From NCBI GenBank assembly GCA_046261745.1, contig JBHEOD010000007.1, positions 1 through 59,012 of the forward strand: a stretch of 59,012 nucleotides of DNA. Direction: 5' to 3'. Below are positions 28,864 to 46,394 of this stretch, in pieces; position 1 is the first letter of the stretch, and the number at the start of each line of letters is the position of its first letter. Origin of the DNA: Candidatus Binatia bacterium (GTDB taxonomy: Bacteria; Desulfobacterota; Binatia; UBA1149; CAITLU01). The notes beneath the pieces are model-generated. The model ran no database searches, had not been told where the DNA came from, and saw only the letters and a list, made by a program, of their open reading frames with translations. The position numbers and the translations under genes were made by a program.

Positions 28864-29085
28864 CTATGCTTGCTTGCGATCGAACAGCAGCATCAGCACG
28901 CCGCCTCCAATGGCCGCGGCAGCCAACCATTGCGGAATATGGACCCGCTCCTTTTCCTCGACGGAGAATTCGAGGGGACCGATCTTGGCGTCATGGGTTT
29001 CCTTGGTGAAGCTGAACGTTCCATAGGCAAGGCCGAGGCCCCCGCCCAAGATGAAAAGAATCGCCAGGATCTTGATGCCGTTCAT
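28864..29085 (-). CDS. 73-aa two-TM protein, DUF3185-like (paralog 1)
   Basis: MNGIKILAILFILGGGLGLAYGTFSFTKETHDAKIGPLEFSVEEKERVHIPQW... is about 80% identical to the 39311..39532 product. Confidence 0.7.
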   Translation of the reverse strand: MNGIKILAILFILGGGLGLAYGTFSFTKETHDAKIGPLEFSVEEKERVHIPQWLAAAAIGGGVLMLLFDRKQA

Positions 29086-29190
29086 GGGGTTTCTCCGTCG
29101 GGACTTTGTTTCGCTTCGCATGGCAGAGCGATCGGGAGCGCGCCACGCCGGAGGTTCAGTTAACAACGCCACACGCGCGAGCGGCAATCC

Positions 29191-29211
29191 GGAGTGATAC
29201 GCGCGTAGTTG
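29191..29211 (-). promoter_or_regulatory. conserved box upstream of DUF3185-like paralog 1 (contains palindrome TACGCGCGTA)
   Basis: The minus-strand reading AACTACGCGCGTATCACTCC is identical at 39650-39670, upstream of paralog 2. Confidence 0.5.
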
Positions 29212-29240
29212 CGCGTACAACCCCGTTGGCGAAGCCCCAC

Positions 29241-29261
29241 GCACGTAGTTTTGCGGGCTAT
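29241..29261 (+). promoter_or_regulatory. conserved box upstream of PAS kinase 1
   Basis: GCACGTAGTTTTGCGGGCTAT versus GCACGTAGTTCTGCGGTGTAT at 34643-34663 matches at 18/21 positions. Confidence 0.45.
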
Positions 29262-29367
29262 GCGCCAAAGGGGTCGTCCGTTAGGATCGCGAAAGAAATT
29301 CCGAGGTCACGCTCGGTCCTCTAAGGCAACGGGCGAGAAGCCCGAGAGGTGCGGCGTCCCGAGCATC

Positions 29368-31089
29368 ATGAAAGCCAACCCGAAGGCTGCCATTCCCAGA
29401 CGACGCGAGGTTGCCCCAGCCACCCCGCTTGCAGCCTCCCCGCTTCGCGCAGTCACAGTCGCTTCCGAGAATCAGCTCGAGCACCGCAACGACGACGCCC
29501 AGACCTGGGACAGCGACCTCAACAACCTCCTCGTCAGCACCAACATCGGGATGGTGCTGCTGGACCGTCGGACCTGCATCCGCCGGTTCACGCCGGCGGC
29601 CACCTCCCTTTTCGGTTTTCTCCACGCCGACATTGGCCGTCCGATCCGTGATCTTTCGCCGAAGTTCACCGACCCTTCCTTTCTTTCCGACGTGTTGCTC
29701 GTGCTCGACGGGGGCGATGCGACCAAGAAAGAGGTGCTGTCGCACGAGGGACGATGGTTCCTGCGACAGACGCTGCCTTATCGGCTGACCGACGGCACCA
29801 TCGAGGGTGCCGTCATCACGTTCTCCGACGTTGCGGCCGACGCGCTCCAGGAAGCACGCCTCTACGCATCGTCCATCGTGAACTCCGTGCGCGATCCGCT
29901 GATCGTGGTTGACGGCGAGCTGCGTATCCATTCGATCAACCAGCCGTTCTCCGACTTGTTCCGGGTGTCCGCAGACGAAGTCCTGGGGCGGGAATTGCGA
30001 GAGGTTTGCAGCCGAGTATGGGACGTCAAGGAACTGCTCCACCTGCTCCAAGGCGTGCTCGAGAACGGCGATTCCATCGATGTCTTCGAGATCGGCTACG
30101 AATCCGCCGCCCTCGGCTCGCGTGCGCTGCTCATGAATGCGCGAGCGCTGCATCGCGGACACGGCCGCCCCGACCTCATCCTCCTGGCCATCGACGATGT
30201 GACCGAGCAAAGGCGGATCGAGGCGCTGTTGCAGGAAAACGAAGCGCGGCGCCACCAGGAAGAGCGCGTCCGCCAACGACAGATCGACCTGTCCAACTCC
30301 CTCAGGGTCAGCACGGTGGGCGAGCTCGCGACCGGGCTCGCTCACGAACTCAACCAGCCGCTTTCTTCGATCTCGAACGTGGTGGAGGCCTGCACCCGTT
30401 CTGTGCGCGCAGGCACCATTGAGCAGGCCAAGATTCTCGAACTCCTGGCAAGCATCGCGAGCGAGACGATGCGTGCTGCGGGGATTGTCGCCCACCTGCG
30501 CAGCTTCGTCGACAAGGGCGAACCTCAGATGGAGGAGGTCGATCTCGTCGAGGTCGTCCGCCATGTGCCCCACCTCCTGCTGCTGGACTTCGAGCGTAGC
30601 CGGGTCTCCCTTCGAACCGCTCTTGCGAATGATCCCCTGCGTGTTCGTGCTGACAGCATCCAGATCGAGCAGGTCATCGTGAACCTGCTCCAGAACGCGA
30701 TCGACAGCATCCACGAAGCAGAGGCCACCGAACGCGTGATCGAACTGAGCGCGTCGCGGAGAAACGGAAACGCAGAGATCAGCGTCCGTGACACCGGCAC
30801 CGGAGTGTCGGCCTCGGCCGCCGAGCGCATGTTCGAACCGTTCTTCACCACCAAGAAACAGGGTCTGGGAATGGGCCTTGCGTTGAGCCGTTCCGTGCTG
30901 GAATCGCATCGCGGGCGGATCTGGATGGAGGATCCCTCGGATGGAGGGGCGGGAATCATCGTGCGGTTCTCTCTTCCGCTCCACATCAAGAAGCGGAAAA
31001 GTCCCGCCTCCGTCAAGAACGCCGTGCCAAAACCTGTTGCCGCCCCACGAAGGAAGCGGCGACGTCCCCCTGCCGGCGCCAACGCCTGA
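29368..31089 (+). CDS. PAS-PAS sensor histidine kinase (paralog 1, no adjacent regulator)
   Basis: Two PAS segments, the H-box GLAHELNQPL, and HATPase boxes LLQNAIDS, DTGTGV, GLGMGLA. Confidence 0.9.
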   Translation: MKANPKAAIPRRREVAPATPLAASPLRAVTVASENQLEHRNDDAQTWDSDLNNLLVSTNIGMVLLDRRTCIRRFTPAATSLFGFLHADIGRPIRDLSPKFTDPSFLSDVLLVLDGGDATKKEVLSHEGRWFLRQTLPYRLTDGTIEGAVITFSDVAADALQEARLYASSIVNSVRDPLIVVDGELRIHSINQPFSDLFRVSADEVLGRELREVCSRVWDVKELLHLLQGVLENGDSIDVFEIGYESAALGSRALLMNARALHRGHGRPDLILLAIDDVTEQRRIEALLQENEARRHQEERVRQRQIDLSNSLRVSTVGELATGLAHELNQPLSSISNVVEACTRSVRAGTIEQAKILELLASIASETMRAAGIVAHLRSFVDKGEPQMEEVDLVEVVRHVPHLLLLDFERSRVSLRTALANDPLRVRADSIQIEQVIVNLLQNAIDSIHEAEATERVIELSASRRNGNAEISVRDTGTGVSASAAERMFEPFFTTKKQGLGMGLALSRSVLESHRGRIWMEDPSDGGAGIIVRFSLPLHIKKRKSPASVKNAVPKPVAAPRRKRRRPPAGANA

Positions 31090-31179
31090 GCGGGAATCTC
31101 CGCTGCAGGGGGTACGCCTGCATCTCGCCACGTTCGCCGCCCCGCAAGTGAGGGACAAAGTTGCGCGTGAAACTACGCG

Positions 31180-31213
31180 CGTAAACGCGCCCGCGTATTT
31201 TCCCGATCTTTAA
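31180..31213 (+). promoter_or_regulatory. 34-nt island motif, copy D
   Basis: CGTAAACGCGCCCGCGTATTTTCCCGATCTTTAA lies 49 nt upstream of the DUF1328 gene. Confidence 0.55.
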
Positions 31214-31262
31214 AGACCCTCCTTTCGGCGGTACAAGTCGATCAACCAACAGGAGGCTTCCC

Positions 31263-31442
31263 ATGCTCAATTACGCAATGACCTTCTTCGTAATCGCTCT
31301 TATCGCAGCGGTGCTGGGCTTCGGCGGCGTCGCCGGACTCTCTGCCGAGATCGGCTGGTTCTTCGCCATCATCGCAGTTGTTCTGCTCGCGGTCGGTTTG
31401 CTATCCGGTCGTGGCGGAAGCGGTGCACTGCCGAGGGTTTGA
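31263..31442 (+). CDS. DUF1328 (YtjA-like) small membrane protein, 59 aa (paralog 1)
   Basis: Not in the ORF track. SD AGGAGG is present. Sequence MLNYAMTFFVIALIAAVLGFGGVAGLSAEIGWFFAIIAVVLLAVGLLSGRGGSGALPRV. Confidence 0.8.
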   Translation: MLNYAMTFFVIALIAAVLGFGGVAGLSAEIGWFFAIIAVVLLAVGLLSGRGGSGALPRV

Positions 31443-31652
31443 GGCAAACCGGTGAGGTCTTTCCGTGACGTGGTCTGGGTGTTGCTCGGTGCGACTGTCG
31501 GCATGACAATCTGCGTCGCCGGCGCCGAGCAGTGGGCATGGTCCACGACGACGGACGTCGTGCCCTTGGCGAGGCTTACGGTCTTCGCCATGCTGGTCGG
31601 CAGCATCCGGCGCCCGGCAGCACCCACACCCGTCACGGGCTGACCTCTCCGC

Positions 31653-33434
31653 GTGTCCGGGACTGCCAACGAGGGGGGGCCAACGGCCTCCAACGACGTT
31701 TCTGCGCCAAGACGGACCCTTCGACAGTTCTGGGACATTTCGAGAGCGTTTTTTGCTGCGCGCGGGCAGCGCAAAGCCCAAGGTTACCTCGCCACGTTGC
31801 TGGTGCTGTCGCTGGCGGTCGGCGGCGTTGAGGTGCTGATCAGCTACGTGGGGCGGGATTTCATGACCGCCATCGCGGAAGCGAAGTCGGAGGAGTACTG
31901 GCGACTCCTCCGTCTTTATATAGGAACCTTCGCCCTCGCCGTTCCCCTTGCCGTCTACTACCGCTGGACGGAAAAACGCCTGGCCCTCCTGTGGCGCGAG
32001 TGGCTCGCGCGGCGGCTCATGGCACGCTACTTCAACAACCGCGCTTACTACCGGTTGCGCGGGTCGGAAGGCATCGACAACCCCGACCAGCGAATCAGCG
32101 AGGACGTGGTCAACTTCACGTCCGACTCGCTGTCGTTCCTCCTGATCGCACTCAACTCCACGGTCACCGTGATCGCGTTCCTGGGTGTGCTTTGGGGGAT
32201 CTCCGGCGCACTGGTTACGGCGCTGTTCGTTTACGCCGCAGCCGGCACGGTGGTCAGCATCCTGATCGGCAAGCGGCTGGTGCGCCTGAGTTTCCATCAG
32301 TACCGCAAGGAGGCCGATTTTCGCTATGGCCTCGTGCGGGTGAAGGACAACGCGGAATCGATCGCGTTCTACCGCGGCGAGCGTCGCGAGCAGGATGATC
32401 TCGTGTCGCGACTGAAGCTCGCCCTGGTCAACGCGGCCGAGATCATCACATGGAACCGCAACCTCGCGTTCTTCACCACCTCCTACAACTTCGCCGCGAT
32501 CGTGCTTCCCATTGCGATCGTGGCGCCGATGTTCATACGCGGGGAGGTCGAGTTCGGCGTCGTGACCCAGGCGGCCGGGGCGTTCGCGACCGTGCTCGCA
32601 GCGGTTTCGCTGGTCATCACCAAGTTCGAGGGACTCAGCATCTACCTGGCGGGCGTTCAGCGACTGGGCGCCCTTTGGGACAACCTCGACGAGTTCGACG
32701 CCGACGAGGAGCGGGCCGCAGCCGAGTCCGAAATGCAACTCGACGAGGACAGCCGCATCGTGAAGCTGGAAGACCTCACCGTGCGGACCCCGGGCCTCCT
32801 GGAGGACTCCAAGTTGCTGGTCGACAACCTTTCATTCGAGCTGCGTCGCAAGCAAAGCCTGCTCATCATGGGCCCGAGCGGCTCGGGCAAGAGCTCCGTG
32901 CTTCGTACCATCGCCGGCCTGTGGCCGTGCGACAGCGGCTCACTGGAACGGCCGCCCCTGCTCGAACTGATGTTCCTGCCACAGCGTCCCTACATGGTGC
33001 AGGGCAGCCTGCGCGACCAGCTTCTCTATCCGTACCCGGCGCGCAAGGTCGAGGACGACAAGATTCGCGAAGTCGTCGCGGCGGTGAATTTGTCCGATGT
33101 GTTCGGCCGAGTCGACGACGACCTCGATCGCACGGTGGACTGGACGAATGTTCTCTCTATCGGGGAGCAGCAACGCGTAGCCTTCGCCCGCCTGTTCCTG
33201 CGAGCACCCCGATTCGCGTTTCTCGACGAAGCCACCAGTGCCCTCGACGAGGACAACCAGGACATTCTGTACCGGCTGCTGAGAGACTCGCACATCGGAT
33301 TCGTCAGCGTGGGGCACCGTCAGACACTCGTGCAGTACCACGACCGCATTCTCGAACTGACAGCTGACGGGAGCTGGGTGATTCGCGACGCAAGCGAGGG
33401 AGACGAGCTCCCCCGCATTGCAGATGCCTCATGA
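31653..33434 (+). CDS. fused ABC transporter permease/ATPase (ABC_membrane_2 / YddA-BacA-like type)
   Basis: N-terminal TM domain, then Walker A GPSGSGKSS, signature LSIGEQQR, and Walker B FAFLDEATSALD. Confidence 0.9.
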   Translation: MSGTANEGGPTASNDVSAPRRTLRQFWDISRAFFAARGQRKAQGYLATLLVLSLAVGGVEVLISYVGRDFMTAIAEAKSEEYWRLLRLYIGTFALAVPLAVYYRWTEKRLALLWREWLARRLMARYFNNRAYYRLRGSEGIDNPDQRISEDVVNFTSDSLSFLLIALNSTVTVIAFLGVLWGISGALVTALFVYAAAGTVVSILIGKRLVRLSFHQYRKEADFRYGLVRVKDNAESIAFYRGERREQDDLVSRLKLALVNAAEIITWNRNLAFFTTSYNFAAIVLPIAIVAPMFIRGEVEFGVVTQAAGAFATVLAAVSLVITKFEGLSIYLAGVQRLGALWDNLDEFDADEERAAAESEMQLDEDSRIVKLEDLTVRTPGLLEDSKLLVDNLSFELRRKQSLLIMGPSGSGKSSVLRTIAGLWPCDSGSLERPPLLELMFLPQRPYMVQGSLRDQLLYPYPARKVEDDKIREVVAAVNLSDVFGRVDDDLDRTVDWTNVLSIGEQQRVAFARLFLRAPRFAFLDEATSALDEDNQDILYRLLRDSHIGFVSVGHRQTLVQYHDRILELTADGSWVIRDASEGDELPRIADAS

Positions 33435-33476
33435 TGGCCAGGCCGGCGGTTATCGGCTCGAGGTTGCTCACCGAGG

Positions 33477-33510
33477 CGTAGAATCACGCACGTAATAATC
33501 CCATCTTACC
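33477..33510 (+). promoter_or_regulatory. 34-nt island motif, copy A
   Basis: CGTAGAATCACGCACGTAATAATCCCATCTTACC lies 88 nt upstream of the 38-aa ORF. Confidence 0.55.
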
Positions 33511-33598
33511 GGCCGCGGTTTCGCGCGATACACAGGAAATCTCGCGGATGGTGCGGACCTGAACATGGAGCGACACCGCGCGAGAAGGGAGTCACCAA

Positions 33599-33715
33599 AT
33601 GGGCAACCTCAAACGCGACAACGAAAGAGGAGCGGCCGGATGGATGCTCCTCTGGCTCGTCGGCATTCCCATTCCCATCCTTCTGGGTCTGTTCCTGCTG
33701 CGCGGATGCACGTGA
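33599..33715 (+). CDS. 38-aa single-TM peptide
   Basis: Not in the ORF track. SD AAGGGAG is present. Sequence MGNLKRDNERGAAGWMLLWLVGIPIPILLGLFLLRGCT. Motif copy A lies upstream. Confidence 0.45.
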   Translation: MGNLKRDNERGAAGWMLLWLVGIPIPILLGLFLLRGCT

Positions 33716-33760
33716 TCTGCACACGCCCGGCCGCGTGCAACGCCTGGCGAAGCTGAGGAG

Positions 33761-34534
33761 CTACGCGCCGCGCCCGTTCGCATCGCCGCGGCGCGCGACT
33801 CCGGAACGATCTTCCCCGTCGCGCTCGAAGCGGATATCCACTCCGTCGGGCTTTCCACTGACGGCGCTGCGCAGCAGTGCAACCAGGTGCGGCGTAGCGC
33901 CGGGACTGGCGGCGATGCTCTCGAGCGCCTCCCCGTTGATCCAGTAGTCGTCGTCGCCTGGCCGCTCCTCTTCGAGAGCATCCTGCAGCACTGCGAGCTC
34001 GACCTCGGAGATGCGCCCGAGTTCCTGTCCGGTGGTATCGTTGTAGAGAGTGATCGTACTGTCGGGGTTCTGGTCCCTGCTCGCATCTGCAACGATTTCG
34101 GCTTCGCTCATGCTGGCGCGCCTCTCGTCGAGGATCTCCAGCTCGGTGAACGTCGGGGCGGCGGGATCGAACGTCTGCCAGCCCGTCGTGATCCACCGGT
34201 TCACCCTGCGCCTGAGGTCGATCGCGCCACTACGACGCAGCACGTCCTTGATCTTCTCGGCCTGCTCTGTCGGCGTCTCCACGACCAGCAGCGCGCTGCC
34301 GCGCCGCAAGCCCTCCGCGTAGGCACTTACGTCGTGGTCGGCCTCGGTGTCGAAGAATGCCAGCAACCTTTCCCAGCCGGTGGGCGCGGGAACCGTCTCG
34401 GAATGCTCCGGGAGCGACGATGGTTCCGTGTGCATGGCCTCTTCGGTCGCGAGTCCCGCGCGCACGAGTTCTTCCTTCGCACGCAGCAGTACGGCCGGAT
34501 CATCGAACATTGCGACTACCCTGATGATAACCAT
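33761..34534 (-). CDS. hypothetical protein with YflT/GSP17M-like N-terminal domain (tentative)
   Basis: Only the 3' 257 codons of the 904-aa track ORF look real. ATG 34534 has SD AAGGAG. Contains MVIIRVVAMFDDPAVLLRAKEELVRAGL...YAEGLRRGSALLVV. Confidence 0.55.
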   Translation of the reverse strand: MVIIRVVAMFDDPAVLLRAKEELVRAGLATEEAMHTEPSSLPEHSETVPAPTGWERLLAFFDTEADHDVSAYAEGLRRGSALLVVETPTEQAEKIKDVLRRSGAIDLRRRVNRWITTGWQTFDPAAPTFTELEILDERRASMSEAEIVADASRDQNPDSTITLYNDTTGQELGRISEVELAVLQDALEEERPGDDDYWINGEALESIAASPGATPHLVALLRSAVSGKPDGVDIRFERDGEDRSGVARRGDANGRGA

Positions 34535-34642
34535 GTCAGCTCCTTGGAGCGGGACGGCCCCCGCGACGGCGAGCCTACGCCATGACGCCGGTGGCGTGAA
34601 GGGGAGAGTCTTTTTTCGCGCCAGCATCTTCCGACACCGAAG

Positions 34643-34663
34643 GCACGTAGTTCTGCGGTGTAT
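34643..34663 (+). promoter_or_regulatory. conserved box upstream of PAS kinase 2
   Basis: It matches 29241-29261 at 18/21 positions. It overlaps the track start at 34658, which argues for a downstream start. Confidence 0.45.
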
Positions 34664-34777
34664 CCTCTGGGGGAGACATTGGTTATGTTGTCGTGCACGC
34701 CGTCCGGACTGAGAGCGGTTTTGCTCCCGGACAATGACGAGAGGAAACCTCGTCGAGGCTGCGATTCCACGAGCAAG

Positions 34778-36421
34778 ATGAAGATCAGGAACCGGTCCGC
34801 AGCAGGTCGACCTGACCGACGTGCGGTCCCGGCGGCTGCCATCTGCAACGTACCCGTCGCCCGCCCTTTCATGAAACCCGAGCCCGTCCGCGACGAGCGG
34901 GGAATCACAGCCGGAGAGTTCGATGCCGGGCTGATCGACTCCCCCAGAGCGATGCTGCTCCTCGACCGGGCACGGTGCATCCGACAGTTCACACCGGGCG
35001 CAACCTCCCTGTTCAGCCTCCTGCCCGGCGACGTGGGCCGGCCGATTCGTGATTTTGCGCAGAACTTCGTCGATGCCGCCTTTCTGTCGGACATCCTGCT
35101 CGTGCTCGAAGGCAGGAACGCCTCGAAGAAGGAAGTGCAGTCGAGCGAGGGGCGCTGGTACATCCGGCAGACGCAGTCCTACCTCCTGGCGGACGGGAGC
35201 ATCGACGGCGCCGCGATCACCTTCTCGGATGTCGACGCCGAAGTGCTTCAGGAGGCGCGCTTCTACGCCGAAACCATCGTCAACTCGGTGCGCGAACCGC
35301 TTCTCGTTGTGGACGCCGAACTCTGCGTACACTCCGTCAACGAGCCGTTCACCACGCTTTTTCAAGTAGCAAGCGCCGACGTCCTCGGGCAAACCTTGCG
35401 CGACCTCGACCGGGGTGTCTGGGAAATTCCCCAGTTGCTCGCCCTGCTGAGGCAAGTTTTCGAGAATGGGCACCCGATGGAGGAGTTCGAAATCCAGTAC
35501 GAATCCAGGGCGTTCGGCACCCGGTCGCTGATCCTTAACGCGCGCACCCTGCATCGTGGCGGTGGACGGTCCGACTTGGTCTTGGTGGCGATCGACGATG
35601 TCACCGAGCGCCGTCGCCTCCGCAAACTTCTCCAGGAGAACGAGGCAAGGCTCCACGAGGAAGAGCGCCTGCGCCAGCGCCAACTCGAGCTCACGAACGC
35701 GCTGCGGGTCAGCACCGTGGGCGAACTTGCGGCCGGCCTCGCCCACGAACTCAACCAGCCGCTTTCCTCGATCTCGAACTTGGTGGAGGCCTGCGCGCAG
35801 CATGTCCGTGGTGGGCCAATCGATGCCCCCCAGCACCTCGAGCTTCTGTCCGAGATCGCCGCCGAGGCGATACGGGCCGCCGGCATCGTCGCGCATCTGC
35901 GCAGCTTCGTTGACAAGGGCGAGCCGCAACTCGCGCACGTCGATCTGGGGGAGATCGTGCGGCACGTTCCCCATCTCCTGATGCGAGAGTTGGAACGTAC
36001 CCGCGTCTCTCTCGAAATCGACATTCCGGAGACGCCACTGCCGGTTGATGCCGACACGATTCAGGTCGAGCAGGTGGTCGTGAATCTCCTGCAGAACGCC
36101 ATGGACAGCATTCGCGAAGCCGCGAGCCCCCAGCGCCGGATCGAGTTGGCGGTCCGGGCAGTCGACGGGATGGGAGAAGTCACGGTTCGCGACACCGGCA
36201 CGGGTGCATCCCCGCAGGCCGCCGAACGCATGTTCGAGGCCTTCTTCACCACCAAGAAACAGGGTCTCGGAATGGGACTGGCCTTGAGCCGTTCCATTCT
36301 CGAGGCACACCGCGGACGTATCTGGATGGAGATCCCCTCGGATGGCGGCCCCGGCACGGTCGTGCGTTTCTCGATACCCATCCGAAATCGCCAAGGCAAC
36401 GACGTGGGGCGAGATCGATGA
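34778..36421 (+). CDS. PAS-PAS sensor histidine kinase (paralog 2)
   Basis: Collinear with kinase 1 (for example VSTVGELAAGLAHELNQPLSSISNLVEAC). The start is uncertain (ATG 34778 chosen; track 34658). Confidence 0.85.
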   Translation: MKIRNRSAAGRPDRRAVPAAAICNVPVARPFMKPEPVRDERGITAGEFDAGLIDSPRAMLLLDRARCIRQFTPGATSLFSLLPGDVGRPIRDFAQNFVDAAFLSDILLVLEGRNASKKEVQSSEGRWYIRQTQSYLLADGSIDGAAITFSDVDAEVLQEARFYAETIVNSVREPLLVVDAELCVHSVNEPFTTLFQVASADVLGQTLRDLDRGVWEIPQLLALLRQVFENGHPMEEFEIQYESRAFGTRSLILNARTLHRGGGRSDLVLVAIDDVTERRRLRKLLQENEARLHEEERLRQRQLELTNALRVSTVGELAAGLAHELNQPLSSISNLVEACAQHVRGGPIDAPQHLELLSEIAAEAIRAAGIVAHLRSFVDKGEPQLAHVDLGEIVRHVPHLLMRELERTRVSLEIDIPETPLPVDADTIQVEQVVVNLLQNAMDSIREAASPQRRIELAVRAVDGMGEVTVRDTGTGASPQAAERMFEAFFTTKKQGLGMGLALSRSILEAHRGRIWMEIPSDGGPGTVVRFSIPIRNRQGNDVGRDR

Positions 36422-36999: not shown

Positions 37000-37024
37000 C
37001 GACGGCCCTGCGTAGTGCTCCCCG

Positions 37025-39756: not shown

Positions 39757-39814
39757 CGAGCCAACCCGCTGCTGTAGCTTTGGGCAAGTCGAACACCGAC
39801 TGAGGAGAACGAGC

Positions 39815-40225
39815 ATGAAACAGAACAACATCACTTCCATTGTCACATTCGTATTCGCTGCCGGATTGCTGGCGGGCGTCACGACCGCCGGTGCCGAAAC
39901 GGTCACGACCTCCAAGACGACCACATACACCGGCGTCGTTTCGGAGGTGAATCCGTCGAGCTCGACTATCATTCTCAAGTCGGAAGCGTCGCCGTCGCCC
40001 GTGACCTACACGTACACCAAGGAGACGACGTTCGTCGATTCGAAGGGCAACGTCGTAACCTACGAAACCATCAAGAACTCCCCGGTCACCGTGGAGTACA
40101 CGACCGAAGGCGGCCAGACGGTCGTTCGCAAGGTGATCCAGACTGCTCCCGCCGTCGAGGTGGCTCCGTCGGCCCCCGTCATCCGCGAGAAGACGACCAC
40201 CCGCACCGAGACCGAGACTCGCTGA
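39815..40225 (+). CDS. secreted Thr-rich hypothetical protein
   Basis: SD GAGGAG is present. It has a signal peptide ending AGA|ET and a Thr/Val-rich beta-like sequence. The C-terminus reads APVIREKTTTRTETETR. Confidence 0.6.
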   Translation: MKQNNITSIVTFVFAAGLLAGVTTAGAETVTTSKTTTYTGVVSEVNPSSSTIILKSEASPSPVTYTYTKETTFVDSKGNVVTYETIKNSPVTVEYTTEGGQTVVRKVIQTAPAVEVAPSAPVIREKTTTRTETETR

Positions 40226-40299
40226 CACCGTCCGGAAAGCCGGCGCCCTGACCACAGGTGCGCCGGCTCCCCCGGCGCCCAGACAAGGAAGATTCTCCC

Positions 40300-40470
40300 A
40301 TGAAAAAACTCATTGCCGGGCTAAGCGTGTTCGCGTTCGTTGGTATGACCACCGGATGCAGCACGGAACGCCAGACCAGAACGACCACCCGGACCGTCGA
40401 AACGGTTCCCGCTGCCCCCGTCGTCATCGAAAAGCGCACGACAACGATGGAAACCCGCACGAGCGACTGA
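40300..40470 (+). CDS. small lipoprotein, Thr-rich
   Basis: MKKLIAGLSVFAFVGMTTGC lipobox. It shares APVVIEKRTTTMETRT with the upstream gene's C-terminus. Confidence 0.55.
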   Translation: MKKLIAGLSVFAFVGMTTGCSTERQTRTTTRTVETVPAAPVVIEKRTTTMETRTSD

Positions 40471-40511
40471 CAAACTTCGCCATCCAGGTTCCCGAAAAAG
40501 GGCATCGAACT

Positions 40512-40567
40512 GGTGATCTCCCGCCCCGCGTCCCCGAAGGGGGGCTTCGACGGGCGGGAGGATCACC
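40512..40567 (+). other. long compound hairpin between the lipoprotein gene and the response regulator
   Basis: GGTGATCTCCCGCC pairs with GGCGGGAGGATCACC (14 bp, one bulge). It encloses an inner TCCCC-GAA-GGGGG hairpin. No T-run follows. Confidence 0.4.
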
Positions 40568-40624
40568 AAGCGAGGCCTTGATCCCGCATCGCGCGAAGGG
40601 GAGTGTCCGAAAGCGGACACCAGG

Positions 40625-41257
40625 ATGGCCATGAATCACGACACCCCGACCGTCTACGTCGTCGACGACGACGCCTCCGTGCGCAACTCGCTCCGCGAGT
40701 TGCTCGCCTCCGTTTCGCTTCCCGTGGAGACGTATGCGTCAAGCCGGGAATTTCTCGATTCCTTCCATCCCGAGCGACCAGGGTGCCTGGTTCTGGACGT
40801 TCGCCTGAAGGAAGGCAGCGGCCTGGATCTTCAGGACGAATTGGTCAAGCGCCACGTTCCATTGCCGATCATCGTGCTGACCGGTCACGGTGACGTGCCG
40901 AGTTCGGTGCGTGCACTCAAGGCCGGCGCTTTCGATTTCCTGCAGAAACCTCCTCCGCCTGACGTTCTTCTCGAGCGGATTCGTGCCGCCATCGAGAACG
41001 ATCGTCAGAGACGTGCGGCAGCGGCATCCCGAGAGGATGCGCTTCACCAGCTTGAATCGCTGACGCCGCGCGAGCGCGACGTGATGTCACTGCTCGTTTC
41101 CGGCTCCACTTCGAAGGAAGTCGCGTCGGACCTGGGGATCAGCGTGCGGACGGTAGAAGGGCACCGGCGCCGGGTACTTTCCAAGCTCAACGTCACCTCA
41201 GCTGCCCAGCTCGTGAGGGTCGTGATGAATACACGGGGGACCGAGGTCGAGAGCTAA
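40625..41257 (+). CDS. FixJ/NarL-type response regulator (REC + LuxR HTH), no adjacent kinase
   Basis: Contains VYVVDDDASV, LVLDVRL, LKAGAFDFLQKP, and an intact HTH LTPRERDVMSLLVSGSTSKEVASDLGISVRTVEGHRRRVLSKL. An alternative ATG is at 40631. Confidence 0.9.
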   Translation: MAMNHDTPTVYVVDDDASVRNSLRELLASVSLPVETYASSREFLDSFHPERPGCLVLDVRLKEGSGLDLQDELVKRHVPLPIIVLTGHGDVPSSVRALKAGAFDFLQKPPPPDVLLERIRAAIENDRQRRAAAASREDALHQLESLTPRERDVMSLLVSGSTSKEVASDLGISVRTVEGHRRRVLSKLNVTSAAQLVRVVMNTRGTEVES

Positions 41258-41328
41258 ACTCGACCCCGGCCCACTGTGCGTCCGGTCAGAACGCGACCGC
41301 GATCGTCGCGCCACGCGAAGAACCTGCG

Positions 41329-41652
41329 CTACACCAGTCCTTGCCGAACCAGCAGTACCGCAGCCTGCGTGCGATTCTTCACCTCGATCTTGCGGAATAT
41401 CCTCTTCAGCTCGGATTTCACGGTCTCCGGCGACACTCCGAGGCGGCCCGCGATCGAGGCGTTCGACAATCCGTCGCAGACGAGACGAAGAATCTGTTTC
41501 TCGCGCTCCGTAAGAGCACGGGGAATGCGATCCGGATCGTGCATCCTGGTACCTGAAGGCAACGGTGCGTTGCGGTTGGGACTTCTCAAATCCGGAGCGT
41601 GTTCGGCCGCTGCGGCGCCTGCGAGATAGGAAGTGTTTTTTTCGAAATTCAC
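41329..41652 (-). CDS. stand-alone LuxR/GerE-type HTH regulator
   Basis: GTG 41652 has SD GAGGAGA. Contains LTEREKQILRLVCDGLSNASIAGRLGVSPETVKSELKRIFRKIEVKNRTQAA. Confidence 0.7.
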   Translation of the reverse strand: MNFEKNTSYLAGAAAAEHAPDLRSPNRNAPLPSGTRMHDPDRIPRALTEREKQILRLVCDGLSNASIAGRLGVSPETVKSELKRIFRKIEVKNRTQAAVLLVRQGLV

Positions 41653-41762
41653 GGTGTCTCCTCTGCCCGGTCGGCGGGCCGCGCACAGGTAGTGCACGTC
41701 GTCACTGTATCGACCGACCAGATACCCACAAGGCCGGACTACTGCGCACGTAGAATCACGCG

Positions 41763-41796
41763 CGCAGAGCCACTCGCGTATTTCTCCGATCTTACG
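41763..41796 (+). promoter_or_regulatory. 34-nt island motif, copy B
   Basis: CGCAGAGCCACTCGCGTATTTCTCCGATCTTACG. A further CGTAGAATCACG lies 14 nt upstream, at 41749. The motif ends 30 nt before ATG 41827. Confidence 0.55.
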
Positions 41797-41826
41797 GGGG
41801 GTCTTTCGGCAGGGTACAACCGGTGC

Positions 41827-42213
41827 ATGAACGCAGCCGAACACATGACCGAAGACCGCTCCATGCCCGACGGACACTACGACGCGACGCAGCGGACGCT
41901 AATGCTGCGAGCCGAACATTCCTCCGTCTCTGCCGACACTCTTCCGGAGCACCGCCTGATGATCGCGCTGGTCAGGGATGCGATCCGATGCATCGACAAG
42001 TACCGGCACGCGCGTGATTTTCGCGGGAAACGCCTGTTCGCCCAGGACGCAGAGTGGGTCTTGTCCGACGACACCGGGTGGATCTATGCGTTCGCGCGAG
42101 TGTGCGAGACCCTCGACCTCGATCGGAACTCGGTTCGGATCGCCCTCGGTCTGCTGCCCGCCCGTGGCGCGGCCGCCACGAACGAGTCGAACTCCGCTTC
42201 GACCGTGCACTAG
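41827..42213 (+). CDS. hypothetical protein
   Basis: 128-aa reading from ATG 41827 inside track ORF 41599..42213. It is divergent from the LuxR gene. No recognisable domain. Confidence 0.5.
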   Translation: MNAAEHMTEDRSMPDGHYDATQRTLMLRAEHSSVSADTLPEHRLMIALVRDAIRCIDKYRHARDFRGKRLFAQDAEWVLSDDTGWIYAFARVCETLDLDRNSVRIALGLLPARGAAATNESNSASTVH

Positions 42214-42303
42214 CTCGATCCCTGCACGTTCCGGCGAAGTCCACGCTTTCGCACGTCCAGTCCCCGGTCGACGCCCGTTCGACCCTGCTCGAAGGAGCCC
42301 ACC

Positions 42304-42477
42304 ATGCTGAACTACGCCGTTACATTCTTCATCATCGCACTGATCGCGTCGGCCCTTGGCTTCGGCGGAGTGGCCGGCCTGTCGGCCGAAATCGGCTGGT
42401 TCTTCGCCATCGTAGCGCTCGTCCTTCTCGCCATCGGCCTGCTGACCGGTCGCGGCCGCGGCATGCTACGCCCCTGA
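42304..42477 (+). CDS. DUF1328 (YtjA-like) small membrane protein, 57 aa (paralog 2)
   Basis: Not in the ORF track. SD GAAGGAG is present. Sequence MLNYAVTFFIIALIASALGFGGVAGLSAEIGWFFAIVALVLLAIGLLTGRGRGMLRP. Confidence 0.8.
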   Translation: MLNYAVTFFIIALIASALGFGGVAGLSAEIGWFFAIVALVLLAIGLLTGRGRGMLRP

Positions 42478-42546
42478 CACGCCTGAGAGGCTGGCCCGGC
42501 CGCGCAGGACTGCGCCGCGCACCGGCCGCGCACGAAGGAGACTTTC

Positions 42547-42765
42547 ATGCCCACCGAACCCAGGACCCAGCCCGACACGGACCAGCCGTCTTCGATTCCG
42601 CCAATGGCGGCGCTGCAATCGGACATGGAGGCGATCGGCCTCAATGTCTCCTACCTCGAGCAGGAGGCGCGGACACTGATCCGCCAACGACCGGTGATGG
42701 CGGCGCTGGCGGCGGCCGGGCTCGGGTATCTCCTCGCGCGCCTTGCCAGTCGCGCGAGCCGCTAG
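42547..42765 (+). CDS. DUF883/ElaB-like tail-anchored protein (tentative)
   Basis: SD AAGGAG is present. The C-terminus RQRPVMAALAAAGLGYLLARLASRASR resembles the YqjD/ElaB anchor. Confidence 0.6.
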   Translation: MPTEPRTQPDTDQPSSIPPMAALQSDMEAIGLNVSYLEQEARTLIRQRPVMAALAAAGLGYLLARLASRASR

Positions 42766-42770
42766 GACAC

Positions 42771-43112
42771 GTGCACGTTAGAGACCCTTCGGGCCAGGAG
42801 CGTCGCACTCTCGGCAGTCACGCCCGGCAGCTCCGCAGCGACACGAGGGCTCTCGTCGCCGAGATCGCCAGCACCAGGGCCGACCTCGAAGGCGCTCTCG
42901 CCGACAACGCGAGACAGCGCCCATACCTCACACTCACGGCGGCTGCCGGCGTCGGCTACGTGCTGGGCGGCGGACTACGCTCGCAGTTCACCGTCGTGAT
43001 CCTCGGTGTGGCCGCGCGTCTCGTGACTGCCATCGCGGTGCGACAGCTGGGCGAGCTTGCCGGCCGGGCGCAATCTTCACCACGTCCACAACCATCGTCC
43101 ACCGGCACCTGA
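42771..43112 (+). CDS. second DUF883-like membrane-anchored protein (tentative)
   Basis: GTG 42771 lies 6 nt after the previous stop. Contains QRPYLTLTAAAGVGYVLGGGL plus a further hydrophobic helix. Confidence 0.5.
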   Translation: MHVRDPSGQERRTLGSHARQLRSDTRALVAEIASTRADLEGALADNARQRPYLTLTAAAGVGYVLGGGLRSQFTVVILGVAARLVTAIAVRQLGELAGRAQSSPRPQPSSTGT

Positions 43113-43139
43113 GCGTAGGGAACCGGCAAAGGAGGTCGA

Positions 43140-43292
43140 ATGTCGCCGCTACTGATTGTCATCCTGTTGCTGCTCGTCTTTGGCGGACTTCCGAATTGGG
43201 GATACCACCAGTACGGCTACGGGCCTTCTGGAATCGGCGGTATCCTGCTTGTCGTCCTCGTCATCATGCTGCTGACCGGAAGGCTGCGCTGA
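43140..43292 (+). CDS. DUF3309 small membrane protein, 50 aa
   Basis: Not in the ORF track. SD AAAGGAGG is present. Sequence MSPLLIVILLLLVFGGLPNWGYHQYGYGPSGIGGILLVVLVIMLLTGRLR. Confidence 0.7.
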   Translation: MSPLLIVILLLLVFGGLPNWGYHQYGYGPSGIGGILLVVLVIMLLTGRLR

Positions 43293-43353
43293 CGCACGCG
43301 ATCCTTCGCGCGCAAGCCTTCCGACGACAACGCACGCAACCGGGCGCCCAATC

Positions 43354-44841
43354 ATGACCACCGACGATCCCGGCCACGTGCGGGTTCCCGGCGTGGCAGA
43401 TGTTGCCGCCGCCACGGCCGTGGTGATCGCGATGCTCATCGCCGTGGCGATCGGTTACCTGCTGCTCGACATCCTGTTCTTGCTGTTCTTCGGCATCGTC
43501 GTCTCGGCGGCTCTCCAGCCGGGGCACGTCGCACTCGGACGGTTGGGCGTGCCCAAAGGGCTCGCGGTCCTGCTGATCTACCTTCTGATCCTCGCCGCCA
43601 TCGCGCTCATGTTGCTGGTGGTCGGCCCGCTGGTGATCGAGCAGTTGGGGAAATTCATCAGTGAAGTGCCGCAATCCTATGCCGACGCACGTTCATGGCT
43701 CCAGTCCAGCAGTTCATGGCCGCTACAGGTCCTTGGGTACCGCATCCCGCCCCTTGAGCGCCTGACGCCCGCGCTGACCGACCTGGCGCCGCACATGCTC
43801 CAGGGAACGCTGGGCGTCACCACGAGCGTCATCCTGCTGCCGGGCTACATCGTGACGGTGCTCGCCATCGGCTTCTACTGGACGATGGAAGTGCCGCGTT
43901 TCGAGCGATTGATCCTGTCGCTGATCGCGGTGGAGAAAAGGCCCCGCGCGCTCAATGCGTGGCACGAAATCGAAACCAAACTCGGTGGGTTCATCCGCGG
44001 CCAGGGTCTGGCCATGCTGTTCGTCGCCGTTGTTTCCGGAGTGGGTTATGCGCTGATCGGACTGCCCAGCGTGCTGGCGCTCGCCGTGCTCGCGGGACTG
44101 CTGGAGGCCATTCCGTGGATCGGGCCACTGCTCGCGGTGTTTCCGGCGTTGTTCGTCGCGCTACCGCTGGGCACCGACAAGGCATTCCTGGTCATCGGTT
44201 TCGCCCTGCTACTCCAGGTCCTCGAGAACAACGTCCTCATTCCGCGCATCATGAACCGCTCCGTCGGGGTCAGCGCGCTCGTAAGCTTGATGGCCATCCT
44301 GGCCTTCGGCACGCTTTACGGAGTGGTCGGAGTCCTGATCGCGATACCGATGGCGGCAGTGATCCAGGTACTGCTCGACTTTCTCGTTGTGAACATCGAG
44401 GAGGTGACTCCGGAAGAACTGGCAGGTCCGTGGACCGATCTTCGGCACCGCATCGGGGCGCTGCGCCAGCGAGCTCGTGAAAGGCTTCGGGCCCGTGACA
44501 GCCGCATGGGCATCGATCCGGCAACCGCGGACCACGTCGTGGATGCGCTCGACCAGCAGATCGAGGGGGCGGTGACGAGAGTCGAGAAACTCATCTCGAT
44601 CGCGGAACGCACGTCCGATCCGTCGGCCGAAGGCGCGCTGGCCGCCATGCTGGAAAGGCTTCAGGCGGCCGCCGGCGAAGTGGAGCGGGCTGTCGATCGT
44701 GCCGATGCGAGCGAGACGCCGGGGCTCGAACCGATCCTCGACACACTTGGACAGGCGACGCAGAAGTTCGATAGTGCGATCCAGGAGGCGGAAACGCTGA
44801 TCGTTTCCGCCCAGGCGAACGCGCCGCCGCGGAGGGCCTGA
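43354..44841 (+). CDS. AI-2E (PerM/YhhT) family transporter with about 130-aa soluble C-terminal extension
   Basis: Multiple TM helices. The conserved C-terminal core is LLEAIPWIGPLLA...VLENNVLIPRIM. A helical tail follows. Confidence 0.85.
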   Translation: MTTDDPGHVRVPGVADVAAATAVVIAMLIAVAIGYLLLDILFLLFFGIVVSAALQPGHVALGRLGVPKGLAVLLIYLLILAAIALMLLVVGPLVIEQLGKFISEVPQSYADARSWLQSSSSWPLQVLGYRIPPLERLTPALTDLAPHMLQGTLGVTTSVILLPGYIVTVLAIGFYWTMEVPRFERLILSLIAVEKRPRALNAWHEIETKLGGFIRGQGLAMLFVAVVSGVGYALIGLPSVLALAVLAGLLEAIPWIGPLLAVFPALFVALPLGTDKAFLVIGFALLLQVLENNVLIPRIMNRSVGVSALVSLMAILAFGTLYGVVGVLIAIPMAAVIQVLLDFLVVNIEEVTPEELAGPWTDLRHRIGALRQRARERLRARDSRMGIDPATADHVVDALDQQIEGAVTRVEKLISIAERTSDPSAEGALAAMLERLQAAAGEVERAVDRADASETPGLEPILDTLGQATQKFDSAIQEAETLIVSAQANAPPRRA

Positions 44842-44880
44842 GACGCGCAGCCCGGGCGCCTCCAAGGCCCTGCTCAACCC

Positions 44881-44914
44881 CGTAGATTCACGCGCGTAGT
44901 AGTCCCACCTTACA
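44881..44914 (+). promoter_or_regulatory. 34-nt island motif, copy C
   Basis: CGTAGATTCACGCGCGTAGTAGTCCCACCTTACA lies 110 nt upstream of csbD. Confidence 0.55.
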
Positions 44915-45024
44915 CGAAGCACCGGTGGCCCCTATAGGTGGTGCACGGCACGGATGTGGGTTCCCCTCGTGCGCACCAGCGCCGCGTCCTTCGACGCAGG
45001 CAAGAAGACAACAGGAGAATCGCG

Positions 45025-45237
45025 ATGAACTGGGATCAGATTGAAGGCAAGTGGAAGGAAATGACGGGTAGCGTGAAAGAGCAGTGGGGCAAGATCACCG
45101 ACGACGAGCTCACGACGATCGGCGGCAAGCGCGACAGGTTGGCCGGCATCATCCAGGCCAAGTACGGCGTGGCCAAGGAAGCCGCCGAAGAGCAGATCGC
45201 CAAGTTCGAACGCGGTCTCGACGAACTCAAGAGCTGA
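45025..45237 (+). CDS. csbD: CsbD-family general stress protein
   Basis: SD AGGAGA is present. Sequence MNWDQIEGKWKEMTGSVKEQWGKITDDELTTIGGKRDRLAGIIQAKYG. Confidence 0.9.
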   Translation: MNWDQIEGKWKEMTGSVKEQWGKITDDELTTIGGKRDRLAGIIQAKYGVAKEAAEEQIAKFERGLDELKS

Positions 45238-45254
45238 GCCCTCGCACCCGCCGC

Positions 45255-45280
45255 CACGCGCAACTCGCGAGTTGCGCGTG
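45255..45280. other. 26-bp perfect palindrome between csbD and the BON gene
   Basis: CACGCGCAACTCG|CGAGTTGCGCGTG. It shares ACGCGCAACT with the DUF3185 promoter region. Confidence 0.4.
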
Positions 45281-45341
45281 CGCAGCATCCATCGCCCGGA
45301 GCCGCTTCCCCGCGGCTTCGGGCCAACCAAGGAGCACGCCT

Positions 45342-46394
45342 ATGACGTTCGCCATCAGCGCCTCTCGCGCCGCCACCATCGCCGCATTCATCGCCCTCTG
45401 CGTTGCCACGCCGGCTTCCGCTGGAACCACACCGACGGACGCCTGGCTCACCACCAAGGTGAAGCTCGCCATCGCGACAACCGACGGAGTCAATCCCACC
45501 GAAGTTCATGTCGATACGGTGCGCCGCGCGGTCACGCTGCACGGCACCGTCAACACCGCCGTCGAGAAGGGCATCGCCGAACAGGCCGCCACGAGCGTCA
45601 CCGGCGTGGACTCGGTGCGCAATCTGCTCCAGGTCGTCCCGGCGGAGAACGAAGCCGCCGTCGAAGAGAAGGATGACAAGATCAGCGCACGCGTGTCGGC
45701 CGCCCTCGCCAAGGAGCCTTCACTGAAGGACAGCAGCATCGCCGTGCAGTCCGTCAACAAGGGCGTTGTGTTGCTGAAGGGCAGCGCCGCGAACCTCAGC
45801 GATCACCTGGACGCGATCGAAGTCGCACGCAGCGTCAAGGGCGTGCGTCGCGTGGCGAGCGAGGTCGAGAGCAAGGACCAGCTCGCGGACAAGAGCATCT
45901 GGAAGGAACGCAACATGGCGGTTGAAGGCGCCGATCCCGCGAGCACTCCAGGCGCAGCCACCGACCTCTACACCACCTCCATGGTAAAAATGCGGCTGCT
46001 CGCCAACGGGGAAACTCCCGCCATGGACATCAACGTGGACACGCGCGCCGGCGTGGTCACGCTCTTCGGCATGGTACCGACGGCGGAGAGCAAGGCTGCC
46101 GCCGAGGCCGAGGCCGGCAAGACGAGCGGCGTCGCGTCGGTGAAGAACCAGCTCCAGGTCGTCGCGACTGCGAAGCAGCCGGCCGTCGAAGCCAGGGACG
46201 ACGTGATCCAGGCCGAGGTCAAGGCGAACCTCGAGAAGAACGCCGACCTCGCCAAAGTGACTCCCGAAGTGAAAAATTGCGTCGTACGGCTGACGGGCAC
46301 CGTGCCTTCGGGCATCGAGCGCGTCGAGGCCATGCAGGCTGCACGCGCCACCAAGGGCGTATGCTCCGTAAAGGAAGACCTTACCTTCCAGTAG
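45342..46394 (+). CDS. periplasmic OsmY-like protein with four BON domains
   Basis: SD AAGGAG and a signal peptide are present. There are four repeats of the BON pattern (for example VDTVRRAVTLHGTV...VDSVRNLLQV). Confidence 0.85.
   Translation: MTFAISASRAATIAAFIALCVATPASAGTTPTDAWLTTKVKLAIATTDGVNPTEVHVDTVRRAVTLHGTVNTAVEKGIAEQAATSVTGVDSVRNLLQVVPAENEAAVEEKDDKISARVSAALAKEPSLKDSSIAVQSVNKGVVLLKGSAANLSDHLDAIEVARSVKGVRRVASEVESKDQLADKSIWKERNMAVEGADPASTPGAATDLYTTSMVKMRLLANGETPAMDINVDTRAGVVTLFGMVPTAESKAAAEAEAGKTSGVASVKNQLQVVATAKQPAVEARDDVIQAEVKANLEKNADLAKVTPEVKNCVVRLTGTVPSGIERVEAMQAARATKGVCSVKEDLTFQ

Follow-up and report, generated by a model that had tools for sequence, protein, structure and literature searches.

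Tandem-box promoters of small membrane and stress-type genes in Candidatus Binatia, probably served by a FixJ-type two-component activator

Introduction

General stress regulons are run by alternative sigma factors in Gammaproteobacteria (RpoS) and in Alphaproteobacteria (PhyR-NepR-EcfG). Dormancy in Mycobacterium tuberculosis is arranged around DosR (DevR), a regulator of the NarL/FixJ superfamily with two paralogous kinases, DosS and DosT, both GAF-haem kinases. DosR acts on some tens of promoters through tandem boxes, each a 20-bp palindrome, of which the proximal one lies over the -35 region, and it activates its own gene along with genes for small stress and dormancy proteins. There are also proteins that consist of little more than the DNA-binding part of such regulators: GerE of Bacillus subtilis is a stand-alone protein with a LuxR-type helix-turn-helix (HTH). 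This article concerns a 34-nt element, present six times in a stretch of 59,012 nt from a Candidatus Binatia bacterium (GenBank assembly GCA_046261745.1, contig JBHEOD010000007.1, positions 1 to 59,012 of the forward strand; hereafter the window). An earlier note, made from the sequence alone, had taken the element for the candidate signal of an undescribed regulon in an island of small membrane and general-stress-type genes.

The described system that bears most closely on the element is FixL-FixJ of rhizobia (Sinorhizobium meliloti, Bradyrhizobium, Rhodopseudomonas palustris) with its FixJ-dependent fixK and nifA promoters. In S. meliloti, FixJ sites obtained by SELEX (systematic evolution of ligands by exponential enrichment) are GTAGTTTCCC and GTAMGTAG, the FixJ site at fixK is TAAGTAATTTCCCTTA, and the footprints of FixJ at fixK extend from -69 to -44 and from -57 to -31 (PMC4999443). 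I find that fixK site in pSymA, 86 nt upstream of the fixK ATG. In R. palustris, a fixK promoter with GTACGTAG is bound by FixJ in gel shifts (PMC13327599). Binatia, the class to which the window belongs, is part of the candidate phylum Binatota, which one account of it presents as known from metagenomic genomes only (PMC8262859).

Results

All six copies of the element are there, in the same orientation on the plus strand, beginning at 31180 (site D), 33477 (A), 37025 (E), 39723 (F), 41763 (B) and 44881 (C). Every one is intergenic with a plus-strand gene downstream. The pattern of invariant columns has six exact matches in the window and none in 100 shuffled sequences that preserve dinucleotide composition, and when up to three mismatches to the motif pattern are allowed, there are eight matches as against 0.49 expected. 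The earlier note was also right about sites B and E, where a third CGTA stands exactly 14 nt upstream. Since G occupies motif position -12 in 26 of the 37 Binatia sites considered below, an extra upstream box is common. The degenerate seventh site suspected at 42251-42272 has to be given up, all of its key columns being absent. A position matrix built from the six sites found four weaker copies that had been overlooked, at 609 (+), 29215 (-), 39674 (-) and 41760 (-). A minus-strand match at 31177 was set aside as an echo of the near-palindromic box, with no gene downstream of it.

Also overlooked was a further conserved block downstream, a TAnAAn hexamer at motif positions 53-58. Its TA begins 22 nt after the CTT of the motif (21 nt lie between) in six of six window sites, whose hexamers read TACAAG in D (31232-31237), TACACA in A (33529-33534), TACCTT in E (37077-37082), TAGCTT in F (39775-39780), TACAAC in B (41815-41820) and TATAGG in C (44933-44938). 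The 37 Binatia sites give the consensus CGTAGAACCACGCGCGTAGTAnTCCGAkCTTACGG, then 17 nt, then TAcAAg, with information content concentrated at positions -1 to 34, 53-58 and 65. The commonest bases are T at 53 (31/37) and A at 54 (32/37), 56 (26/37), 57 (27/37) and 65 (21/37), positions 55 and 58 being n. Inside the motif the 14-nt sequence CGCGTAG-W-A-n-Y-M-C-G occurs twice as a direct repeat (positions -1 to 12 and 13 to 26), and in about 40% of the sites a third repeat lies upstream. TCCGAkCTTACGG (positions 23-35) lies over the -35 region, with TTACGG at the -35 position and a spacer of 17 nt.

Where transcription begins can be judged from the start codons of hyp128 genes, members of an uncharacterised family that often lies behind the motif. 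Their ATG or GTG stands 5-7 nt (typically 6) past the hexamer in the window and in L002, L020 (three copies), L028, L043, L049, L051, L058 and L059, where L and a number denote a locus of another genome. In the window as in L051, L058 and L059, gene calls made independently by NCBI, JGI and ENA give an offset of exactly 64 nt between motif position 1 and the hyp128 start. The NCBI product ABR587_02295, which is 100% identical to hyp128 of the window and belongs to a Candidatus Binatia genome assembled from a metagenome (contig of 59,344 nt), begins at ATG 41827. A start codon 5-7 nt past the hexamer leaves no space for a ribosome-binding site, so the transcript should be leaderless. Given leaderless start codons, the hexamer is the -10 element and +1 falls at about position 65, and given that start, the 34-nt motif covers about -64 to -30, that is, an activator-binding region and the -35 region. 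The motif is thus the upstream half of a composite promoter of about 65 nt.

The -10 hexamer TAnAAn has T at -7 in only 10 of the 37 sites. I tried to calibrate the housekeeping -10 element of Binatia on leaderless genes without the motif, but the signal was drowned by internal in-frame start codons, and for that reason the missing T can be read neither as a general trait nor as one specific to the regulon. Genes for holin-like proteins (Phage_holin_3_6, YqjE-type) also have an ATG at the predicted start, in L020 (5538), L028 (5125), L030 (2327), L051 (12373) and L002 (6715), positions being counted in the orientation of the site. Only in L002 is that ATG in frame with the annotated protein; elsewhere it may belong to a short leaderless upstream open reading frame (ORF), or there may be an assembly error.

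The earlier note did not recognize the cis-element. Its proximal box, though, equals FixJ sites that have been defined experimentally (PMC4999443, PMC13327599), and the regulator and kinases of the island are of the FixJ/FixL type. Site E reads ACGTACGTAATTTCCCGATCTT, and its GTAATTTCCC is the core of the fixK site in 10 positions out of 10; it has GTACGTAA besides. Site D reads GCGTATTTTCCCGATCTT, and its GTATTTTCCC agrees with the SELEX site GTAGTTTCCC in 9 of 10. Judged by sequence, D and E contain FixJ-like boxes. The very sequence of the R. palustris promoter, GTACGTAG, occurs in L049, and the Binatia consensus GTAGTAnTCC has 7-8 of 10 positions in common with the FixJ site. The boxes are also where a FixJ promoter would have them: from the start deduced above the motif runs from about -64 to -30, and the fixK footprints run from -69 to -31.

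The best candidate for a protein that binds the boxes is a FixJ-family response regulator of 210 aa encoded at 40625-41257 (+), with a receiver domain and a LuxR/GerE-type HTH (Pfam). Compared with proteins of solved structure it matches StyR at 7e-48 and B. japonicum FixJ at 2e-39, and with S. meliloti FixJ it shares 41% identity over 194 residues (E 1e-43). These similarities place it in the FixJ family. Its recognition helix, SVRT(V/I)EGHRR, is kept in seven of seven Binatia copies (six loci and the window); the corresponding helix is SPRTVEVHRA in FixJ and AEVTVKVHRH in StyR. No exact copy of the regulator turned up in public assemblies, and megablast of the island against plasmids gave no match.

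As the earlier note had it, the island encodes two PAS kinases and a solitary LuxR-type HTH protein (Pfam), and no sigma factor lies there or in the rest of the window. One sensor histidine kinase (34658-36421, +) has the Pfam domains PAS_10, PAS_4, HisKA and HATPase and a FixL-type kinase core; its best PDB matches are FixL kinase-core chimeras, at 6e-43 and over residues 331-576 only. Its paralogue, also a PAS_10/PAS_4 histidine kinase (29209-31089, +), is 60% identical to it. The claim of two FixJ/NarL regulators holds insofar as there are two receiver-domain proteins, but the HTH is intact only in the one at 40625-41257. In the other (36418-36999, +), whose gene overlaps that of the upstream kinase by 4 nt, the C-terminal HTH is decayed and truncated: Pfam sees Response_reg only, and the alignment has LSMTAHESGQCWRC where the intact regulator has ISVRTVEGHRRRVLSKL. 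Co-transcribed with the kinase gene at 34658, this protein may have lost DNA binding, and it could serve as a phosphate sink or modulator. The stand-alone GerE/LuxR-type HTH protein (41329-41544, -; about 71 aa if translation begins at the first ATG past the predicted start; Pfam GerE 1e-19) has orthologues adjoining the regulator and hyp128 genes in L002, L051, L058 and L059.

The promoter is conserved in other Binatia genomes. Scanning one genome for each of 185,579 species with the pattern CGYARN9CGTANTNNYCCSAYCTT returned 50 stretches, 17 of them labelled Candidatus Binatia. To guard against circularity, the matches were scored with a matrix made from the six window sites alone and on columns that the search pattern leaves unspecified. 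The Binatia matches nonetheless score far above the others (Mann-Whitney p = 3e-7), and TA is present at positions 53-54 in 10 of the 17 Binatia matches vs 1 of the 33 others. The best match outside Binatia, L041, labelled Thermodesulfobacteriota, looks genuine, and the lowest-scoring match with a Binatia label (probably L044, its flanks off the consensus) looks like chance. Rescanning the 8-kb Binatia loci gave about 35 sites scoring at least 35, often two to four per locus, against a shuffled maximum of -4.7. Further targets in these genomes include genes for holin-like (YqjE-type) proteins, BON lipoproteins, small membrane proteins and PAS-domain kinases, and some enzymes. Homologues of the regulator are encoded less than 8 kb from motif sites in 5 of the 17 8-kb Binatia loci (L002, L020, L028, L037 and L049, the last with two copies) and in the 20-kb loci L051, L058 and L059, all of these three being syntenic islands.

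Sites are retained at orthologous genes in four syntenic islands, L002, L051 (on a 647-kb contig), L058 (on a 630-kb contig) and L059. L058 carries the whole island. Its sites lie upstream of CsbD and BON genes (score 41), as in the orthologous position in the window; of hyp128, DUF1328 and the ABC transporter (41); of a holin-like gene followed by YtxH and DUF3309 (38); of a Gly-zipper protein (44); and of the GerE protein (9.5). Another, orthologous to F, precedes the genes for the Thr-rich protein, a lipoprotein, the kinase and the regulator, all in one direction (34), and on the other strand a site scoring 29.9 precedes the genes for the 73-aa membrane protein and DUF6600. L002, L051 and L059 agree with L058: regulator, GerE and hyp128 genes form the core in each, and the sites are there too. 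Conservation at orthologous loci, whose absence the earlier note would have counted against the regulon, is present.

The genes behind the sites in the window are of the kind that had been listed, by Pfam or by reading of the sequence: two DUF1328 genes, CsbD, a protein with four BON domains, an AI-2E transporter, DUF6600 and a DUF3309-like ORF. The view of the motif as a promoter element that joins the small membrane and stress-type genes of the island in one regulon is supported. Promoter D (31180-31244, +) has its boxes at 31180-31214 (CGTAAACGCGCCCGCGTATTTTCCCGATCTTTAAA) and a predicted start at about 31244. It precedes the gene for a DUF1328 membrane protein (31263-31442, +) and, downstream of that, one for an SbmA/BacA-like ABC transporter (31653-33434, +), an order also seen in L051 and L058. 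Promoter A (33477-33541, +; boxes 33477-33511) precedes the gene for a 38-aa transmembrane peptide (33599-33715, +).

Promoter E (37025-37089, +), with boxes at 37025-37059 and the third box 14 nt upstream, lies before a 64-aa ORF (37234-37428, +) of uncertain coding status that has no homologue in the other loci. The predicted start, 37089, is also the ATG of a 50-aa ORF (37089-37241) with a weak coding signal, and a strong hairpin terminator of 17 bp stands past the 64-aa ORF, at 37454-37491. The transcript from E might be non-coding.

Promoter F (39723-39787, +; boxes 39723-39757) precedes the gene for a Thr-rich secreted protein (39815-40225, +), then a lipoprotein gene. F probably drives the gene of the FixJ-like regulator as well, which would amount to autoregulation. 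Divergent from F is a weak variant promoter (39610-39674, -) with CTACGCGCGTATCACTCC, upstream of the gene for a 73-aa membrane protein (39311-39532, -) and, downstream of that, the gene for the DUF6600 protein (37501-39243, -), after which comes the hairpin terminator at 37454-37491. The DUF6600 protein ends in a long, charged, low-complexity tail with tandem repeats of the APKPQMQPERTQKQ type. A second weak variant promoter (29151-29215, -) stands upstream of a gene for a paralogous 73-aa membrane protein (28867-29085, -), 81% identical to the first. Both 73-aa genes thus have variant promoters that keep the box CTACGCGCGTATCACTCC and do without TCCGATCTTACG.

Promoter B (41763-41827, +; boxes 41763-41797) has its predicted start at 41827, the ATG of the leaderless hyp128 gene (41827-42213, +). 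The second DUF1328 gene (42304-42477, +) is probably co-transcribed from B; hyp128 followed by DUF1328 is also the order in L051, L052 and L058. Back to back with B is a weak variant promoter (41696-41760, -) upstream of the stand-alone GerE gene, with equivalents in L002, L051 and L058, and the third box of B, 14 nt upstream, is common to the two. B also shares spacer sequence with D (TCTTTCGGC.GGTACAA), which suggests promoter duplication. Further along are genes for a DUF3309-like membrane protein of 50 aa (43140-43292, +), read from the sequence, and an AI-2E family transporter (43354-44841, +; Pfam); the corresponding downstream run of stress genes has a Pfam DUF3309 gene in L058 and also in L051, where the AI-2E transporter gene comes next. 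Promoter C (44881-44945, +; boxes 44881-44915) precedes the genes for a CsbD-like protein (45025-45237, +) and an OsmY-like protein with four BON domains (45342-46394, +; Pfam).

One site (609-673, +) stands apart from the rest, with 28 kb between it and the island. The ORF downstream of it (about 732-950, +) is for a small Gly-rich lipoprotein with collagen-like GxxGxx repeats. The site is among the weaker ones, though its CTACGCGCGTAG box is perfect, a 12-bp palindrome without a fault. Just upstream of the island, at 20178-26493 (+), are other stress-related genes: otsA, a fused trehalose-phosphatase/trehalase gene and that of polyphosphate kinase 1. The matrix scan of the window found the motif at none of the three.

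Genes of the hyp128 family are the most frequent target of the motif, accounting for at least 13 of the 37 sites. Members occur in the window and in L002, L003, L020, L028, L030, L032, L043, L049, L051, L058 and L059. A genome has several of them, as in L020 with three inside 8 kb, and wherever a start could be placed (in nine loci and the window), the gene is leaderless behind the motif. In L003 the site, which is reversed (2158), has as its target a leaderless gene for a Cys-rich protein of 84 aa with CxxC motifs, followed by a hyp128-like gene; Hsp20, BON and CheB/CheR-PAS_10 genes are in the neighbourhood. The family comprises at least 99 sequence clusters, all annotated as hypothetical. 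No Pfam family is matched by single sequences or by 62 family members, and a profile search of PDB sequences found no match. Of two AlphaFold models of hyp128 the second is confident, with a four-helix core at residues 40-110 (pLDDT at least 95), and two Foldseek searches of the PDB gave nothing below E = 0.5. Very weak Foldseek matches to sigma-factor chains were not taken as evidence. Two distant relatives, P0051 and P0076, have Shine-Dalgarno sequences and no motif, so the association of hyp128 with the motif is confined to one clade.

Discussion

I propose that these promoters respond to a two-component activator of the FixJ type and that they drive the genes for CsbD, BON, DUF1328 and other small membrane proteins. 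Going by the sequence of boxes, promoters and signalling proteins, this is the probable reading. The PAS-domain kinases (29209-31089 and 34658-36421) would phosphorylate the FixJ-family regulator (40625-41257), which would bind the tandem boxes at about -64 to -40 and recruit RNA polymerase where a usable -35 hexamer is lacking, as in class II activation. In the window it would act on at least six strong promoters and four weaker ones, and through them on CsbD, BON, the two DUF1328 genes, the SbmA-like ABC transporter, DUF3309, the AI-2E transporter, the small membrane peptides, the Thr-rich secreted protein and leaderless hyp128. Promoter F would add positive feedback on the operon of the regulator itself; its orthologue in L058 stands at the head of an operon whose last genes are those of kinase and regulator. 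How the promoter is built, that it is conserved and to which family the regulator belongs are shown by the sequences; I infer the identity of the binder, activation rather than repression, and the stress-type nature of the signal.

One may go further, tentatively, and imagine a general-stress or dormancy programme of Binatota (CsbD, BON/OsmY, DUF1328, DUF3309, YtxH, holin-like and small membrane proteins) that is wired through a FixLJ-derived activator instead of an alternative sigma factor, with eight to ten promoters per island, and with hyp128 as its most constant target and as a possible co-regulator together with the GerE-type protein. This wider picture may well prove wrong even if the FixJ-type activator is real.

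Several observations weigh against a FixJ-type activator. Among proteins of solved structure the regulator matches StyR best, and StyR binds a different palindrome, so membership in the family does not by itself fix the DNA specificity. No FixL-type haem-binding PAS domain was detected in the kinases, and the sensor region (PAS_10 and PAS_4) matches no PDB entry for the FixL haem domain. The boxes are 14 bp apart vs about 23 bp between the AATTTC repeats of S. meliloti fixK, and the GTA(A/G)T..CC box is about 8 nt closer to the start than at fixK, where the start is itself an estimate. The conservation of TCCGAkCTTACG goes beyond what a simple inverted half-site needs, and the -10 hexamer is without its usual T at -7. 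Finally, genes next to the sites encode two other candidates of the HTH type: the GerE protein and, possibly, hyp128.

Suppose that the promoter is built as described, but that its boxes are read by the GerE protein (41329-41544, -) or by hyp128, the regulator acting elsewhere or indirectly. The genes of both proteins do lie behind motif sites, as is often so for autoregulated factors. In the window, L002, L051 and L058 they are transcribed away from each other and have one array of boxes in common; in L059 they are adjacent. Moreover, hyp128 is the most constant target and ends in a pair of helices that resembles an HTH. But the boxes match FixJ sites, whereas the recognition helix of the GerE protein, SPETVKSELKR, is unlike that of FixJ, and no GerE homologue was found in the 8-kb loci L020, L028, L037 and L049, which carry both the regulator and motif sites. 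As for hyp128, no likeness to a DNA-binding family or fold could be detected, and it has distant relatives that live without the motif. I consider a GerE or hyp128 reader of the boxes unlikely, though worth keeping in mind. Much less can be said for the copies as remnants of a dispersed repeat or mobile element with no regulatory role. They are multiple and clustered, and D and B have spacer sequence in common, but conservation is specific to columns while the flanks are unrelated, each strong site points at a gene from a promoter-like distance, and positions are kept at orthologous genes across genomes. There is no other repeat structure, and no Rfam covariance model reaches its gathering score in 28000-47000. 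It is hardly credible that such an origin explains the element.

Then there is the question of sigma factors. The motif had been said to resemble neither the sigma70 nor the sigma54 consensus; this is borne out, and sigma28 and EcfG are likewise unmatched. No site passes a scan for the sigma70 consensus (TTGACA, 16-18 nt, TATAAT with A at 2 and T at 6). The sigma54 consensus (TGGCAC-N5-TTGC) with 2 mismatches has 50 matches as against 56.6 expected, none with GG/GC in register at a site. EcfG (GGAAC-N16-17-CGTT) has one match in the window, in the region at 52001, vs 1.27 expected, and none in the island. The sigma28 consensus (TAAA-N15-GCCGATAA) has no exact match in the window. It could still serve as the model for taking CCGATCTT, within the motif, as the -10 element itself, with the start some 7-10 nt after it: CCGAT matches the core of GCCGATAA, and 16 nt upstream, at positions 3-6, sites D and E have TAAA where most other sites have TAGA. 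CCGAT is, however, all that they have in common, the ATAA tail of the consensus being CTT here. Besides, the evidence for +1 lies 27 nt further downstream: a separate TAnAAn stands 21 nt beyond the motif's CTT in fixed register (positions 53-58), and start codons of leaderless genes fall at position 65 in five genomes. A sigma28-like promoter would leave these unexplained, along with the invariant CGTA at 15-18, and there are no flagellar genes among the targets. The idea that CCGATCTT is the -10 element is therefore dropped as very improbable.

A lineage-specific alternative sigma factor is another matter. Its -35 and -10 elements would be TCCGAkCTTACG and TAnAAn, with the CGTAG boxes as an accessory activator site, and it would run a regulon like those of RpoS, SigB and EcfG. 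The -35 region is indeed unusually conserved (C24, C25, A27, C29, T30 and T31 are nearly invariant). The -10 element without T at -7 and the failed sigma70 scan would fit too, and in other phyla such gene content is typical of regulons under general-stress sigma factors. Against this, the window and the four syntenic islands have no gene for a sigma or anti-sigma factor, while FixJ-type regulators and kinases are always there, and the GTA(A/G)T..TCC part of the conserved block is already accounted for by the FixJ site. The lack of a -35 hexamer is characteristic of promoters under a class II activator. Because TCCGAkCTTACG is so strongly conserved and T is missing at -7, a dedicated sigma factor acting together with the activator has to be allowed a small chance, and I rate it as quite improbable.

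If a FixJ-type activator is accepted, how far does the likeness to FixL-FixJ go? The architecture of the regulator is the same (receiver and LuxR-type HTH, about 205-210 aa, with 41% identity and a similar recognition helix), the kinase core is of the FixL type, the boxes GTA(A/G)TTTCCC and GTACGTA(G/A) match, and the bound region, here predicted, lies upstream of and over a poor -35 element, at about -65 to -30. The differences are as plain. The sensor has PAS_10 and PAS_4, with no haem-binding PAS detected. Where fixK has an 18-bp palindrome, the promoters here have up to four boxes at a 14-bp period and then TCCGAkCTTACG. Many targets per genome would be direct, as against few for FixJ, and they are stress-type and small membrane genes, not fixK, nifA or respiratory genes. 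Many transcripts are predicted to be leaderless, and the phylum is Binatota. Since no haem-binding PAS domain is detectable and the targets do not include fixK, nifA or respiratory genes, the system of the island is not the FixLJ oxygen system in the strict sense.

In the logic of its regulon the system recalls DosR: two paralogous kinases, tandem boxes, autoactivation and small stress proteins. The box is different, however, DosR has GAF-haem sensors, and the sequence relationship was compared at the level of the superfamily only. The gene content overlaps with that of RpoS and EcfG regulons (CsbD, BON/OsmY, DUF883/ElaB-like, DUF1328, DUF3309, YtxH and YqjE/holin-like proteins), but the sites have no EcfG motif, the islands have no sigma gene, and control appears to be based on an activator. 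The protein of about 70 aa with nothing but a GerE-type HTH resembles GerE of B. subtilis; in its recognition helix it is unlike the FixJ-like regulator.

The kind of signal is most likely a familiar one, a regulon under a two-component regulator of the FixJ/NarL family, and not a new kind. Its novelty lies in boxes spaced 14 bp apart, in the conserved TCCGAkCTTACG, in how many targets would be direct, in leaderless transcription and in the phylum. The regulon may be called undescribed, as the earlier note called it, only insofar as transcription in this uncultured phylum is unstudied; the element itself is most likely of the recognized FixJ type.

Binatota is a widespread uncultured phylum, and I know of nothing reported on its transcription signals. 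The promoter described here would give it a first model, with tandem activator boxes, a -10 element without the usual T at -7 and frequent leaderless transcripts, along with a concrete regulon to look for in metagenomes and metatranscriptomes. It also singles out for study hyp128, a conserved family of small proteins tightly tied to the system. If the assignment to a FixJ-type activator is true, then stress genes that elsewhere are under RpoS, SigB or EcfG would in these bacteria sit under a two-component activator.

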